64,000 nt of DNA from NCBI GenBank assembly GCA_944386725.1, contig CALXCE010000002.1:5305-69304 (forward strand), written 5' to 3'. This stretch comes from an uncultured Clostridia bacterium. Lineage in GTDB: Bacteria > Bacillota > Clostridia > TANB77 > CAG-508. The notes beneath the pieces were generated by a model, which saw only the letters and a list, made by a program, of their open reading frames with translations, made no database searches and was not told where the DNA came from. This document shows, one piece after another, positions 15,541 through 39,734 of this stretch. Every line of letters starts with the position of its first letter. Position 1 is the first letter of the stretch. Both the position numbers and the translations under genes were made by a program.

Positions 15541-15626
15541 AGGTGTTTTTGGGGACGGAGATAAAAAACACCTTATTTATTTTTTTACCAATAAGGTGTT
15601 TTTTATCTCCGTCCCCAAAAACACCT
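15541..15626. repeat. twin GC-cored hairpins / 33-35-bp near-perfect inverted repeat in the sleB-ypeB intercistronic gap
   Basis: Arm 1 (15541-15575) is aaggtgttttt-GGGGACGGAGAT-aaaaaacacctt. Arm 2 (15594-15626) is its reverse complement apart from one T. Each arm is itself a hairpin, and the two loops (GGGGACGGAGAT and ATCTCCGTCCCC) are complementary. Confidence 0.85.
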
Positions 15627-16101
15627 ATTTACAAAAACGATGCTTTCCAATGGTTTTTACCAATGGCCTTGACCAAATCCATTGATTGGTTGCTGTATCA
15701 GGATTAAAGTAATAAATACATCCTCCCGTTGGATCCCAACCATTCATAGCATCTTGTGCTGCTTTATATACAGTAGAACCTTCACTAATAGGACTATTAA
15801 TTTGTCCATCTGAGACTGCTGTAAAAGCTCCTGATTGATAAATAACTCCTGCTATCGTATTTGGGAATTGAGAACTTTTTACTCTATTTAAAATAACAGC
15901 ACCTACAGCAACTTGTCCTTCATAAGGTTCTCCTCTTGCTTCTCCATTAATAGCCCTTGCCATTAACTGTATGTCAGATGTATTAGAAGACGCTGCATAA
16001 CTAATATTATCTTCTCGCATGTCACCTCCTACAAAAGTGAAAGATATGATAATGACTAATAAAATCAAAATTAATCCTATTATTTTTATTACTTTTTTCA
16101 A
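15625..16101 (-). CDS. sleB: SleB/CwlJ-family spore cortex-lytic cell-wall hydrolase (catalytic domain with N-terminal anchor)
   Basis: 158 aa with the Hydrolase_2 family signature (ARAINGEARGEPYEGQVAVGAVILNR...NGWDPTGG...YYF). TTG start with AAAGGTGA RBS. Confidence 0.7.
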   Translation of the reverse strand: MKKVIKIIGLILILLVIIISFTFVGGDMREDNISYAASSNTSDIQLMARAINGEARGEPYEGQVAVGAVILNRVKSSQFPNTIAGVIYQSGAFTAVSDGQINSPISEGSTVYKAAQDAMNGWDPTGGCIYYFNPDTATNQWIWSRPLVKTIGKHRFCK

Positions 16102-16202
16102 AAAATCACCTTTTTCTTTTTTATATTCTTTATTATTTTGTATTTTTATTAAAAAAATATTCCATTTTTTGAAATTTTATTATTTTTATGATAGAATGTG
16201 AA

Positions 16203-16323
16203 TTGGGGACGTTTCTTTTTGCACATTTTTGTGAATTTAGGGACAGTTCTTTATAATATTTTATATTTAATTTTAAGATATGTCCCTCATTGCACAAAAA
16301 TGTGCAAAAAGAAACGTCCCCAA
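16203..16323. repeat. 121-bp palindrome: perfect 31-bp inverted repeat (ttggggacgtttctttttgcacatttttgtg) with extended imperfect arms (AGGGACA boxes) around an AT-rich centre
   Basis: Left arm 16203-16233 and right arm 16293-16323 are exact reverse complements. There is an inner agggaca/tgtccct pair and a tataat-like centre. It sits in the divergent sleB / glycosyltransferase promoter region. Confidence 0.85.
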
Positions 16324-16342
16324 TCCACAGAAAGGATTTTTT

Positions 16343-17467
16343 ATGAATATTTTAATTTTTTATGCCTCTTATGGCGGTGGTCATCTAAATGCCGCAAAAT
16401 CCATCCATGAATATATTCTAAACCATTATAAAAATAATTATATTGAATTAATCGACTGTATGAAATATGTAAATAAAACCGTTGAAAAAGTTACAACGGC
16501 AGCTTACCGAGAAGCTGCTAAAAAGGCTCCTTGGGTTTGGGGAAAAATTTATAATGATTCTCAAAAAGGACCTTTGGCTCATCTTTCTACCAGATCTAAT
16601 AAAATTATGGCAATTAAATTATTAAAATTATTACGAGAAAAAAAACCAGATTTAATTATTTCTACCCATCCATTTAGTAGCCAAATGTGTAGTTATCTAA
16701 AAAGAAAAGGAAAAATAACCGCAAAAATTGCAACCATTATGACTGATTTTGCCCCACATGACCAGTGGCTTGTTGGTAGCGATTTTACTGATTATTATTT
16801 TGTAGCCAATGATAAAATGAAAGATTATTTAATACAAAAAGATATTAAAAATACAAAAATATTCGTAACAGGCATTCCCCTATCCAACCGATTTTTACAA
16901 AAACATGATAGAAAAAAAATCCTGGATACTTATCATCTCCAAGATGGAAAACGAAATATATTATTTTTTGGGGGTGGAGAATTTGGTTTAGGAAAATCCA
17001 AAACCTTTGAAATATTAGATAGTCTTATCAAAACTTCTTTAGATATGCAAATCATCGCCATTGCTGGAAAAAATGAAAAAATGAAAGCAAAATTCGATGA
17101 AATCGTTGAAAAAAACAAGGCTAACAAACGAGTTAAAGTCCTTAGTTTTACGAATCAAGTTCCTGAGCTTATGAGCATTTCCGATTTGGTAGTAACAAAA
17201 CCTGGTGGCATGACAACAACAGAAAGTTTAGCCTCTGAATTACCAATGATTATTATCAACCCTATTCCTGGGCAGGAAGAAGAAAATGCAGAATTTTTAG
17301 AAAATAAGAATGTTGGTATTTGGATAAAAAAAGAGGATGATGCATCTAAAATTTTACATAGTTTATTTTCTAATCCTGATAAACTAAATGAAATGAAAAA
17401 CAATGCTAGACTTTTGGGACATCCAAATTCAACAAAAAATATTTGCAATATATTATTACATAATTAA
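16343..17467 (+). CDS. GT28-family glycosyltransferase, MGDG synthase / UgtP-like diacylglycerol glucosyltransferase
   Basis: MNILIFYASYGGGHLNAAKSI... N-terminal MGDG-synthase domain plus a C-terminal GT-B domain. The track ORF starts 63 nt upstream; ATG at 16343 is preceded by AAAGGA. Confidence 0.7.
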   Translation: MNILIFYASYGGGHLNAAKSIHEYILNHYKNNYIELIDCMKYVNKTVEKVTTAAYREAAKKAPWVWGKIYNDSQKGPLAHLSTRSNKIMAIKLLKLLREKKPDLIISTHPFSSQMCSYLKRKGKITAKIATIMTDFAPHDQWLVGSDFTDYYFVANDKMKDYLIQKDIKNTKIFVTGIPLSNRFLQKHDRKKILDTYHLQDGKRNILFFGGGEFGLGKSKTFEILDSLIKTSLDMQIIAIAGKNEKMKAKFDEIVEKNKANKRVKVLSFTNQVPELMSISDLVVTKPGGMTTTESLASELPMIIINPIPGQEEENAEFLENKNVGIWIKKEDDASKILHSLFSNPDKLNEMKNNARLLGHPNSTKNICNILLHN

Positions 17468-17492
17468 AAAAGCACATCTGTGCTTTTTTGTT
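17468..17492. terminator. hairpin aaaagcaca-tctg-tgctttttt; bidirectional terminator between the glycosyltransferase gene and recR
   Basis: 9-bp stem followed by a T-run, immediately after the stop codon. Confidence 0.55.
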
Positions 17493-37851: not shown

Positions 37852-37879
37852 AAAAATCTCCTCGTATCTTCTTTTATAA

Positions 37880-38623
37880 TTAAATTTTATTATAAATTTT
37901 TAATAGTTCTTCTGTATATTTTCCATCTGTATTGTAAATATATAAATTCTTTTCTACCTTTAAAAATGGTTTTGCATTTTTGACTCCTTTTATTAATACT
38001 AGTTTAGGTTCACTGTTTTTATTAGAATAAACAAAACGCATAATTTTAGGTTCTATTTTATAGGATCTCATAATACTTAATATATCTACTAACCTATCTG
38101 TCCTATGTACCATATAAAATTCACCTTTATCCCTTAATAAATCTTTAGAAATTTTTATAAAATCTTCCAAATTGGCTGTTGTTTCATGCCTTGAAATAAT
38201 TTTCTTTTCCTCTTCATTTTTGATTCCTGTGTCTTTTTTCTTATAAGGTGGATTAGTCACAATTGCATCAAACATATTTTTTTCAAATATTTTATTTAAA
38301 TTTAATATATCCTCATTTACGATTTTAAATTTATTTTCTAATTGATTTAATATAATACTTTTTTGAGCCATTTTATATACTTCTTTTTGAATCTCTACAC
38401 CTATTATTTCTTTTAGATTCGTTTTTTCACATAGTAAAGTTGCTATAATCCCTGTTCCTGTTCCTAAATCTAACACTTTCGTATTGGGTTTTATTTCTTT
38501 GGCAAAGTCTGATAATAAAATACTGTCAATTCCAAAACGAAACCCTTTTTTATTTTGAATTATTTTTAAATTTTTAAATTGTAGGTCTTCTATTTTTTCA
38601 TTTTCATTTAATTTTATTTTCAT
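37880..38623 (-). CDS. SAM-dependent N6-adenine methyltransferase, tRNA1(Val) m6A37 MTase (YfiC/TrmN6-like)
   Basis: VLDLGTGTG SAM-binding motif and NPPY motif (VTNPPYKK). Confidence 0.65.
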   Translation of the reverse strand: MKIKLNENEKIEDLQFKNLKIIQNKKGFRFGIDSILLSDFAKEIKPNTKVLDLGTGTGIIATLLCEKTNLKEIIGVEIQKEVYKMAQKSIILNQLENKFKIVNEDILNLNKIFEKNMFDAIVTNPPYKKKDTGIKNEEEKKIISRHETTANLEDFIKISKDLLRDKGEFYMVHRTDRLVDILSIMRSYKIEPKIMRFVYSNKNSEPKLVLIKGVKNAKPFLKVEKNLYIYNTDGKYTEELLKIYNKI

Positions 38624-39040
38624 TTTTATTTTTCCTTTTTTATTTTATGTCTATCATTTTTTTATACTTAACTTTTCTTTCTTTTCAGTCAATCCCATCA
38701 TTTTCGCTCAAAGTTATTTAACAAATCTAATTATTAAAATTACTTTTTTATCTAAAATTTGTAAACCATTTTTTATTTCCCACATATTATACAATAAAAT
38801 AGATATTTTTGCAAAATTTAAGAATCAGGGGAAAAATAAAATGAGTAAAAATTTTTTTAATGAAAACAATCAAAATAATAGAGGAGAAAAAAAATCCCCT
38901 CATAAAAAATCTTTTAATTTTAATTTATGTAAAAAAAATACAATAAATTCTATTAATGATGTTGAACATTTTTTAAACAATTTTCATCATTATTTTAAAT
39001 ATTTTAAACTATATAAAATAATAAAAAAATAAAAATTTAA

Positions 39041-39583
39041 TTAATTTTTTCTAGTATATATTTCATTAAATTCACTATTTTCATTTCCGTCAATTAGTAT
39101 TTTAACCTGGTTAACTTCTGTTAGTTCGGTTAAAGTATTTACAATACTATTGATTAAATTTGTTTTTTCATTTTCGTCTTCTTTTGAATAATTTAAAAAT
39201 TCACTAGAAAAATCTAATACCACACAATCTCCTTCTAAATAATTTTTATTTAATTTTGCATTATCTGGAATGATTTTTCTATTTTTATCATTTTTAGGTC
39301 CTTCTATTAATAAATTAATTAGCTTTTCATAAGGATTGTTAATAATCTCTTTTATATCAATTAATCTAGCTTCTGGATTTAACTCATTTGTTTCTTTAGA
39401 CGGAAAATATAAACTAACAATTGTCTGTCTAGCTTGATCTTCTGTTATTTCCTCTTCAGGAATATATTCTTCAACCATTGTTTTTTCTTCTTTATTTTTA
39501 ACGTATTGTATTACTAAATATCCTCCTATTAACACAATAATTAATATAACTAAAAAAATGATTCCAATTTTCTTGTTTTTCAT
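39041..39583 (-). CDS. membrane-anchored GerMN-domain (sporulation/germination) protein
   Basis: N-terminal transmembrane segment then a domain resembling GerM; low-confidence assignment. Confidence 0.4.
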   Translation of the reverse strand: MKNKKIGIIFLVILIIVLIGGYLVIQYVKNKEEKTMVEEYIPEEEITEDQARQTIVSLYFPSKETNELNPEARLIDIKEIINNPYEKLINLLIEGPKNDKNRKIIPDNAKLNKNYLEGDCVVLDFSSEFLNYSKEDENEKTNLINSIVNTLTELTEVNQVKILIDGNENSEFNEIYTRKN

Positions 39584-39693
39584 AGTTACCTCCTTGTACT
39601 TTCTACTTATTAACCATATTATTATTTGTTTGTCCTTTTTAGAACTATTTTATGCCACTATTTTAAAATCATACAAAACAAATAACAAAACTA

Positions 39694-39734
39694 CTGGTGC
39701 TTTTTGTCCCCGTCCCCAAAAGCACCAGTTTTTT
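39694..39734. repeat. GC-cored hairpin ctggtgctttt-TGTCCCCGTCCCC-aaaagcaccag followed by tttttt
   Basis: 11-bp stem. The loop is the complement of the GGGGACGGGGA box. It sits in the 5-prime region of the activase gene; no convergent gene for it to terminate. Confidence 0.75.

Follow-up and report, generated by a model that had tools for sequence, protein, structure and literature searches.

A probable REP/REPIN–RAYT-type system with two hairpin repeat families in uncultured AT-rich Clostridia

A stretch of 64,000 nucleotides (nt) from an uncultured Clostridia bacterium (contig CALXCE010000002.1; 28.8% G+C; hereafter the window, on whose numbering its copies, coordinates and strands are given) contains six copies of short hairpin-forming elements, every one intergenic. 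We consider it probable that these elements represent two cognate repeat families, here called type A and type B, of a REP/REPIN–RAYT-type system in uncultured AT-rich Clostridia. The families are real and restricted to one clade, their stems show compensatory changes, and in relatives inverted copies stand around the matching RAYT. To our knowledge, REP/REPIN–RAYT systems have been worked out almost wholly in Proteobacteria. The relatives, which share approximately 75-85% DNA identity with the window in aligned genes, were surveyed as contig loci (labelled L016-L126) drawn from related metagenome-assembled genomes (MAGs) and metagenome assemblies.

Two types of element in the window

The heptamer GGGGACG matched five times on the two strands of the window against an expectation of 0.31, a count that none of 100 dinucleotide shuffles reached; all five sites lay inside the elements described here, with no occurrence in coding sequence except for a 2-nt overlap with the sleB stop codon. 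On these points an earlier sequence-only reading proved right: the four GGGGACG loci that it had described were present when the window was re-read, and it had called them intergenic and beyond chance. It had, however, taken them for a single family with the heptamer inside AT-rich stems. There are instead two related yet distinct element types, and the heptamer lies in the hairpin loop in type B and 10 nt 5' of an internal hairpin in type A.

Type A is a 56-nt unit with three window copies and the form ATGTGnnATTGGGGACG-TTTCyTTTT-[kCACA-TTTT-TGTGm]-AATTkGGGACACATCT, in which two GGGAC boxes 34 nt apart flank a short hairpin (kCACA-TTTT-TGTGm), the second box coming after it. Conservation falls sharply at both ends of the consensus of 96 copies (ATGTGnnATTGGGGACGTTTCyTTTTkCACATTTTTGTGmAATTkGGGACACATCT), and box 2 reads GGGGACAC where position 34 is G, as in 40 of the 96 units, RAYT-flanking copies among them. 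Two window copies, A1 and A2 (Table 1), form an inverted doublet (16196-16330; spacer 25-26 nt) between the divergent sleB and monogalactosyldiacylglycerol (MGDG)-synthase genes, which folds as single-stranded DNA with -49.3 kcal/mol (z -17.4). The third, A3, sits between the tadA stop and the ribosome-binding site and start of an open reading frame (ORF) without known function; this solo copy, for which the sequence-only reading had given about 85% identity, is real and slightly closer to A1/A2 (88-92%). An additional partial 34-nt module is present on the head side of about 12 type A units, and a single unit contains three full boxes. Four or five copies (L070 7756, L079 5827, L081 4192, L083 3561) have the loop AAAA in place of TTTT with unchanged stems, and look as if the stem-loop had been inverted.

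Type B, also with three window copies, is a hairpin with GGGGACGG in its loop (GGTGyTTTT-GGGGACGGrGnn-AAAArCACC, or, generalised, X-TTTT-GGGGACGGrGnn-AAAA-X'). The B1 arms are a perfect 37-nt inverted repeat (100% complementary) and form a head-to-head, REPIN-like doublet (15540-15626; fold of -42 kcal/mol, z -14.9) that occupies exactly the whole gap between the sleB stop and the ypeB ribosome-binding site. The remaining copy, B2, lies 9 nt upstream of a promoter-like site (TTGACA-17-TACAAT) that is kept in L020 directly beside its element. Compensatory changes are found in the type B stem, with T/A replaced by C/G between B1 and B2 (GTGT/ACAC to GTGC/GCAC in B2 and L113) and GGTG/CACC by CCTG/CAGG in L126.

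Type A stems fall into four classes (CACA/TGTG, GCTCC/GGAGC, CCGACA/TGTCGG and GGACA/TGTCC) with constant boxes. Across 78 distinct units 87.5% of cells pair, double changes occur at six of seven pairs, and the covariation score is 0.223 as opposed to 0.072 when shuffled (reached in 0 of 500 shuffles) and at most 0.060 in slid controls. These counts include related sequences, so that the statistics overstate independence, but the distinct stem classes still demand several separate double changes. Covariation with the 5' arm extends to the head segment X (columns 2-6; 75% paired, score 0.191, at most 0.117 in slid controls), which fits a reading of the unit as X-box-X'-loop-X-box (generalised, X-TT-GGGGACG-TTTCyTTTT-X'-TTTT-X-ATTkGGGACACATCT, X' pairing with the following X); type B would then be X-box-X'.

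Dispersal within one clade

When searched against one genome per GTDB species, the type A pattern GGGACR-N10-CACA-N4-TGTG-N6-GGGAC gave 102 matches in 87 stretches, 100 of them in 11 related MAGs from a clade of uncultured AT-rich Clostridium/Clostridia genomes; the other two, in one Actinomycetota and one Pirellulales MAG, are chance hits. Strict matches numbered 57 in CATLUC01, 11 in CANPAC01, 10 in JAAVZN01, 8 in CANEFU01, 6 in CANQTU01 and one or two in each of six more. The value for CATLUC01 is a lower bound, and a profile search finds additional, weaker copies. The type B pattern gave 20 exact matches in 15 contigs of two metagenome assemblies, with no type A units in those contigs. No type A match was obtained in viral contigs, plasmids or phages, and plasmid records held only distant Y1 homologues (below 40% identity). 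No Rfam family reached threshold, the sub-threshold matches being generic long-hairpin ones (plant and animal microRNA precursors), and a text search of the literature with the motif returned unrelated primers only.

These data bear out the suggestion of the sequence-only reading that the elements are REP/BIME-like, since they are extragenic repeats with high copy number that form hairpins and are found singly or in inverted doublets. Close type A pairs are always in the order + then - (head-to-head, with the ACATCT ends inward) and enclose interiors of 25 to about 500 bp. Solo units outnumber doublets and have equally sharp boundaries, and the sequences flanking 14 doublets showed no target-site duplication. 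Contig ends hold many of the copies, which is to be expected since repeats break assemblies.

Occupancy of individual sites differs between the window and its relatives. The sleB-ypeB spacer, occupied by a type B doublet in the window, has a type A doublet in L056 that follows immediately on the sleB stop; the B2 site, upstream of the conserved promoter-like element, holds a type A unit in L020; and the A3 site retains only a one-box remnant, TGTGAAATTGGGCATACATCT, in L064. Four further sites (L094, L042, L064 at 1638-1692 and L093) have a unit in the relative and none in the window. Occupancy therefore turns over between species, with some sites repeatedly hit or kept.

Further small repeats were seen beside these elements. 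A separate palindrome in the window (34408-34616; 50-nt arms, 90% complementary, 109 nt apart; no Rfam match) has an interior (34514-34580) that is 87-89% identical to sequences nested in type A doublets of a related MAG (L071, L077, L092), and these alignments suggest a second small repeat family travelling within or beside doublets. A third hairpin family, TAGGATTTGGGGACGGCCCCAAAATCCTA, has at least eight copies in related MAGs and none in the window (Table 1), and could be a 'double-foot' palindrome produced by central deletion of an inverted pair. In L052 (60-450) and L066 (6300-6780), two type A doublets surround a common non-coding sequence of about 400 nt (…GATGTTCACGTCGA…GAGGACTACAAGAACAAAAG…) with no Rfam match and no long ORF. 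The window also has a 21-nt tandem array at 4147-4321 (TTGTTTCTTGTTCTTTTACTT, identity up to 96%) within a segment of about 1.6 kb (3852-5509) that is missing from the orthologous region of L093, where the junction is a type A unit.

Two RAYT-like proteins bracketed by their repeats

The sequence-only reading had proposed looking for a conserved gene encoding a binding protein, and the relatives contain two, both for RAYT-like Y1/HUH proteins and each bracketed by inverted copies of one element type. Its idea of binding sites for a single protein holds in so far as cognate protein genes exist in the relatives, and fails in that two families and two proteins are involved.

RAYT-A is a Y1/HUH transposase of 258 amino acids (aa), intact in L058 (CATLUC01), where inverted type A units bracket it. 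Its locus is the same in ten species (L053, L058, L095, L097, L100, L102, L103, L104, L105 and L122), in the order tsaE, mreB-like, radical-SAM, small ORF, RAYT, radA, disA and a peptidyl-prolyl isomerase gene. Inverted type A units also surround it in L053 (JAAVZN01), L095, L097, L100, L102, L104, L105 and L122, while in L103 the orthologue is bracketed by B-like hairpins (ATGTCC-TTTTGGGGACGTTTCTCAAT-AGGACAT). Both flanking units belong to one stem class in the species checked (L095, L097, L100, L104 and L105). The L053 protein matches Pfam Y1_Tnp with 36.5 bits (cutoff 23); its gene is frameshifted at about 4550-4570 by the loss of 1 nt in an A run (AAA where the orthologue implies AAAA), which means either an error of assembly or a pseudogene; the genome nonetheless retains at least ten units. 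In most of the loci compared, though not in L102, the interval from the upstream unit to the RAYT-A start codon contains a conserved hairpin, AAAAAGTATAGC-N12-16-GCTATACTTTTTTTG (Table 1), that looks like a terminator or attenuator insulating the transposase gene.

RAYT-B, a 258-aa paralogue that is 36% identical to RAYT-A over the core, is encoded between an ABC-F gene and tex, with a CorA gene adjoining in L115 and a few genes upstream elsewhere. Inverted type B hairpins bracket it at this same locus in three species (L115, L124/L125 and L126), and in L126 their stem is CCTG/CAGG in place of GGTG/CACC. No second copy of the transposase gene was found in approximately 640 kb of relatives' loci. 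The RAYT-A family comprises 608 members at E≤1e-10, one bearing the JGI name 'REP element-mobilizing transposase RayT' and many lying on contigs of about 1 kb, and the RAYT-B family 943 members at E≤1e-20. Two further candidates for the window organism's own RAYT (P0009 and P0014) were rejected, as both come from other samples and have no locus overlapping the window.

The RAYT proteins score 50-60 bits against Pfam Y1_Tnp (cutoff 23) and carry the motifs NHVHLI and RYIHQNP, with H60 nearly invariant and H62, Y119 and N123 invariant. The AlphaFold2 model of RAYT-A (pLDDT 84.9) has as its best Foldseek match in the PDB 4ER8, the complex of E. coli TnpA-REP with a REP hairpin (E=1.7e-5; TM score 0.68 normalised to the target; root mean square deviation 2.7 Å), followed by the IS608, IS200 and ISDra2 TnpA proteins. 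A single-sequence search of RAYT-A against PDB sequences gave no significant match; a profile search placed 4ER8 first (E=0.089), with the HUH, (W/F)Q-x-RF and Y-I-x-x-NP motifs aligned. The RAYT-A core ends near residue 145, and the C-terminal third (about 110 aa) is helical and confidently modelled. Towards the C terminus (residues 227-257) only sub-threshold Pfam matches to helix-turn-helix families were obtained (Sigma70_r4_2, HTH_23, HTH_25 and CENP-B_N).

Proposed mechanism

We propose that a Y1/HUH tyrosine transposase, single-copy and inherited vertically, would bind the hairpin and box when these are on single-stranded DNA (e.g. at the replication fork), with type A acted on by RAYT-A (beside radA) and type B by RAYT-B (between the ABC-F gene and tex). 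Both families have a conserved GGGGAC(G/A) box, adjacent to a short hairpin or within it, and the stem of that hairpin can vary in sequence provided that pairing is kept. The enzyme would cut near the boxes and rejoin, and the repeats would be copied (copy-out/copy-in) to new extragenic sites, persisting there as solo units or head-to-head doublets. This scheme, in which the RAYTs would cleave and mobilise the repeats, is modelled on E. coli TnpA-REP and IS608 TnpA. The two families appear to be linked, to judge from window type B sites that are type A sites in other species and from the B-like hairpins around RAYT-A in L103.

Several observations weigh against this proposal. The tblastn search found no RAYT gene in the 64-kb window, and it is from relatives at approximately 75-85% DNA identity that the window genome is expected to carry RAYT-A and RAYT-B. 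The best NCBIfam model of the L053 protein, REP_Tyr_transpos, scores 57.6 bits, below its equivalog cutoff of 80. The canonical GT[AG]G tag of REP repeats is missing at the foot of the Clostridial hairpins (type A and B consensus). On its own, the internal hairpin of type A is of marginal thermodynamic stability (-2.2 kcal/mol, z -0.4), and the covariation that argues for it reflects in part the relatedness of subfamilies. No transposition event, excision product or strain-level insertion polymorphism was seen, presence and absence differing between species only, and where species share a unit at an orthologous site, a selected host function, instead of continuing mobility, could be the cause.

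Placement at gene ends and stop codons

Just one of the 103 strict type A units is located within a long ORF. Units point their head (ATGTG) end at a gene end in 68 cases and at a gene start in 28, and among the 66 units with two called neighbours the head falls within -12 to +10 nt of a stop codon in 27, as opposed to 6.8 expected under uniform placement within the same intergenic gaps. The usual stop at the head is a TAA whose last base is the first A of the unit, or else the TGA within the unit's own ATG-TGA. Stop codons likewise mark the start of type B hairpins (TAG-GTG following sleB in the window; TAG-GGTG, L124; TAA-ATG, L115; TAA-CCTG, L126). In L094 (1274-1283) the unit takes the place of a gene's final codons, with the protein ending ...KFKM* as opposed to ...KFHHLD* in the window orthologue, and in L057 (6541-6596) an upstream ORF reads into a unit or degenerate module, so that element sequence encodes the last residues (…FATFLRKPSKM*). 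Such units thus remodel protein C-termini. A host-level effect on mRNA 3' ends or translation termination may follow from this placement.

A bolder interpretation is that the RAYTs place repeats with near-nucleotide precision at stop codons, the whole being a stop-codon-targeting single-strand transposition device kept by the host as a genome-wide regulator of 3' ends or translation termination rather than selfish DNA. Under it the type A head (ATG-TGA/TAA-TGTG) and the type B head (TAG-GTG/TAA-CCTG) would often supply or abut the stop, and 34-nt box-to-box modules would be gained or lost via cut-and-rejoin at GGGAC sites, which would account for the one-, two- and three-box forms. We regard this interpretation as unlikely. 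A related 'empty site' idea, in which a 34-nt module inserts into a one-box site TGTGnnATTGGGGACACATCT, predicts common one-box sites; one clear (L078 678) and one degenerate (L064) example were found, and the idea is speculative.

Alternative explanations

The elements could instead be primarily RNA-level signals (terminators, stabilising 3' hairpins or modulators of translation termination) that resemble each other by convergent constraint. E. coli REPs near stop codons reportedly affect translation and mRNA decay, as Liang, Rudd and Deutscher are said to have found in 2015. Such a function would suit the stability of the type B hairpins, the T run after B2, the abutment of type A heads on stop codons and the type B hairpins that start at stop codons (window, L115, L124 and L126). 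Yet none of the window copies was called as terminator-like by the criteria for intrinsic terminators (a GC-rich stem, a 3-8 nt loop and a T tract), because the loops, with 12-13 nt, are too long for this; B2 and A1/A2 are situated in divergent promoter regions, which have no need of a terminator; and no Rfam family reaches threshold. Convergence, moreover, does not yield near-identity of more than 100 copies and leaves the bracketing of the RAYTs unexplained. We consider this explanation very unlikely as the primary one, while an RNA-level function is plausible as a secondary, exapted role of repeats belonging to a RAYT system.

There is very little probability, in our judgement, that the units serve as operators for a global transcription factor or nucleoid protein recognising GGGAC boxes, i.e. 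a regulon signature and not mobile DNA. Two or three boxes at a fixed 34-bp spacing, units at orthologous sites in several species, the probable C-terminal helix-turn-helix of the RAYTs and the closeness of copies to promoters or ribosome-binding sites (B2 9 nt from TTGACA-17-TACAAT; A3 and A2 about 20 nt from start codons) are all compatible with operators. Against these stand an identity of about 90% across all 56 nt, non-box positions included, the preference for 3' over 5' gene ends (68 versus 28), the functionally unrelated neighbour genes and the breaking of contigs at copies. Compensatory stem changes, furthermore, make a difference to a folded single strand but none to a duplex operator, and it is a HUH nuclease gene that inverted copies consistently bracket.

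Almost certainly wrong is the view that the units are DDE-type MITEs, cut-and-paste deletion derivatives of an insertion sequence with type A as terminal inverted repeats, since the head-to-head doublets with 25-500 bp interiors (some common to several copies), the TGTG...CACA outer ends and the direct sub-repeats on each end, a feature that recalls IS21 or Tn7-type ends, are set against the missing target-site duplications in 14 doublets, solo units that have the same sharp boundaries and are commoner than doublets, and the finding that in about 640 kb of the relatives' loci no DDE-type or other recurring gene lies beside or between units, the Y1/HUH transposase being the sole regularly bracketed gene.

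Other identities were tried and rejected. Tn7/Tn402/IS21-like ends with transposase-binding sub-repeats were discarded together with the DDE MITEs, there being no target-site duplications and no such gene nearby. An outward promoter inside type A (sigma-70, ECF or sporulation sigma) was not convincing by eye, and a promoter scan did not rise above shuffles. The parS-like half-sites TTTCAC/GTGAAA split by 6 nt were judged coincidental, and integron attC, dif/Xer sites, CRISPR and DNA uptake sequences misfit the dispersed housekeeping context and the tandem 34-nt period.

Comparison with known systems

The sequence-only reading had recognised no named family, and in this it missed the nearest named class, the TIRtrons, i.e. 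RAYT-like 'TIRYT' genes between long inverted repeats with a common GGGGWSAS motif (Di Nocera et al. 2013, PMC3733652). Some TIRtron repeats form moderately abundant dispersed families, with dimers in some genomes, and no Firmicute is mentioned in that paper. According to Quentin et al. 2018 (PMC6006769), TIRYTs are probably TnpA-Y1 subclass 2.1, which has a C-terminal helix-turn-helix and a flanking-repeat consensus GGGG[AT][CG]A[CG]; the same paper reports no REP-like sequences near subclass 2.1 genes and maps RAYT Group 1 of Bertels et al. to one of its subclasses. Group 1 occurs in Clostridia as well, with only low-abundance flanking 16-mers (Bertels et al. 2017, PMC5581495). A repeat family from a Firmicute is described in none of these three papers (PMC3733652, PMC6006769 and PMC5581495).

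TIRtron/TIRYT is the closest class to the elements described here, a placement made by features rather than phylogeny. Common to both are a RAYT-like Y1/HUH protein that exceeds canonical RAYTs in length through a C-terminal extension, here putatively of helix-turn-helix type, a gene between long inverted repeats, repeats that also form dispersed, dimer-arranged families in some genomes, and the G-rich GGGGWSAS motif, which type A box 2 (GGGGACAC) fits, whereas the type B box (GGGGACGG) and type A box 1 (GGGGACGT) miss it at position 7. The Clostridial system differs in its compensatory-stem hairpins, which reach at least 57 copies in one MAG, and in having two paralogous proteins, each with its own repeat type. 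Compensatory-stem hairpins, two enzyme–repeat pairs per lineage, high copy number and strong stop-codon association are features not described for the TIRtron class.

With the REP/BIME (REPIN)–RAYT systems of Proteobacteria (E. coli TnpA-REP, Pseudomonas fluorescens REPINs) the elements have in common that they are short extragenic hairpins, solo or head-to-head and in high copy. A single-copy, vertically inherited Y1 gene between inverted copies, and one repeat family per RAYT paralogue, also appear from the loci compared to be common features, and 4ER8 is the best match of the predicted RAYT-A structure. The Clostridial motif, however, is GGGGAC(G/A), which in type A stands 10 nt away from the hairpin and in type B occupies the loop, the stems are short and AT-rich, the protein has an extra C-terminal domain of about 110 aa, and the host is a Gram-positive anaerobe. 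IS200/IS605 elements (IS608, ISDra2) resemble the system in the Y1/HUH fold and motifs, the subterminal hairpins, the lack of target-site duplication and, by analogy, an expected single-strand mechanism. Here, in contrast, the transposase gene occupies a fixed syntenic locus in ten species, apparently as a single copy, the many dispersed copies are gene-free, so that the transposase is not part of the multi-copy unit, and the left and right ends are not distinct but inverted copies of one repeat. Bacterial MITEs (Correia/NEMIS, RUP, BOX, ERIC) are likewise small, non-coding, intergenic and palindromic, often by gene ends, and form long RNA/DNA hairpins, but the Clostridial elements are without target-site duplications or a parental DDE insertion sequence, and solo half-elements dominate.

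Genomic context of the window

The genes around the window elements are typical of spore-forming Clostridium (Table 1). The organism of the window is also present in the ENA assemblies ERZ28614620, ERZ24773273, ERZ28614420 and ERZ2641724. Elsewhere, a 768-aa membrane-anchored protein (ORF 21925-24231, - strand) contains seven tandem 207-nt repeats (22576-24117; 63-79% identity) that encode dockerin-like calcium-binding modules (…GDINNDGxIxxxDxxLIQxYL…).

Table 1. Repeat elements and neighbouring features of the window, with two further hairpins located in related loci
Feature	Position	Strand	Remarks
ypeB	14151-15524	-	window gene
ypeB ribosome-binding site	15531-15539	-	window
B1-left, type B	15540-15574	+	AAGGTGTTTTT-GGGGACGGAGAT-AAAAAACACCTT; adjoins ypeB ribosome-binding site; single-stranded DNA fold -7.5 kcal/mol, z -5.1
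B1-right, type B	15593-15626	-	exact inverted copy of B1-left; overlaps sleB stop codon by 2 nt
sleB	15625-16101	-	window gene; stop codon 15625-15627
A1, type A	16196-16250	+	box 1 GGGGACG, hairpin GCACA-TTTT-TGTGA, box 2 GGGACA; nhmmer E=2e-14 against 96-unit profile
A2, type A	16277-16330	-	inverted partner of A1; nhmmer E=2e-15
MGDG-synthase-type glycosyltransferase	start ~16344	+	window gene
Signal recognition particle (SRP) RNA	20254-20349		window
ORF without known function	20413-21168	-	window
A3, solo type A	21179-21234	+	nhmmer E=9e-16
tadA	21241-21708	-	window gene; stop at 21241
B2, type B	39693-39729	-	ACTGGTGCTTTT-GGGGACGGGGACA-AAAAGCACCAGT (minus-strand reading); fold -11.9 kcal/mol, z -6.7
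Promoter-like site, sigma-70-type	39739-39767	+	TTGACA-17-TACAAT, 11/12 matches; context for downstream gene
recR, ybaB, dnaX			window genes
Third hairpin family	L016 3109, L036 6279, L038 1640/3061, L050 2848, L067 1437, L071 7525, L090 1555		copies in related loci
AAAAAGTATAGC/GCTATACTTTTTTTG hairpin	L053 4240-4275; L058 4040-4065		~60-110 nt upstream of RAYT-A start in L095/L097/L100/L103-L105

Implications

The system is a Clostridial counterpart of REP/TIR repeats, which extends a known kind to a new phylum and introduces no new principle. For RAYT Group 1/subclass 2.1 ('TIRYT') the surveys report either no REP-like hairpins or only low-copy flanking repeats. With two paralogous enzymes, two repeat types, at least four stem variants and fixed GGGGAC boxes, the clade offers a natural data set on which parts of a repeat matter, and the strong placement at stop codons provides a concrete, testable hypothesis. 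The repeats also fragment metagenome assemblies of these gut Clostridia, and may serve as lineage markers.

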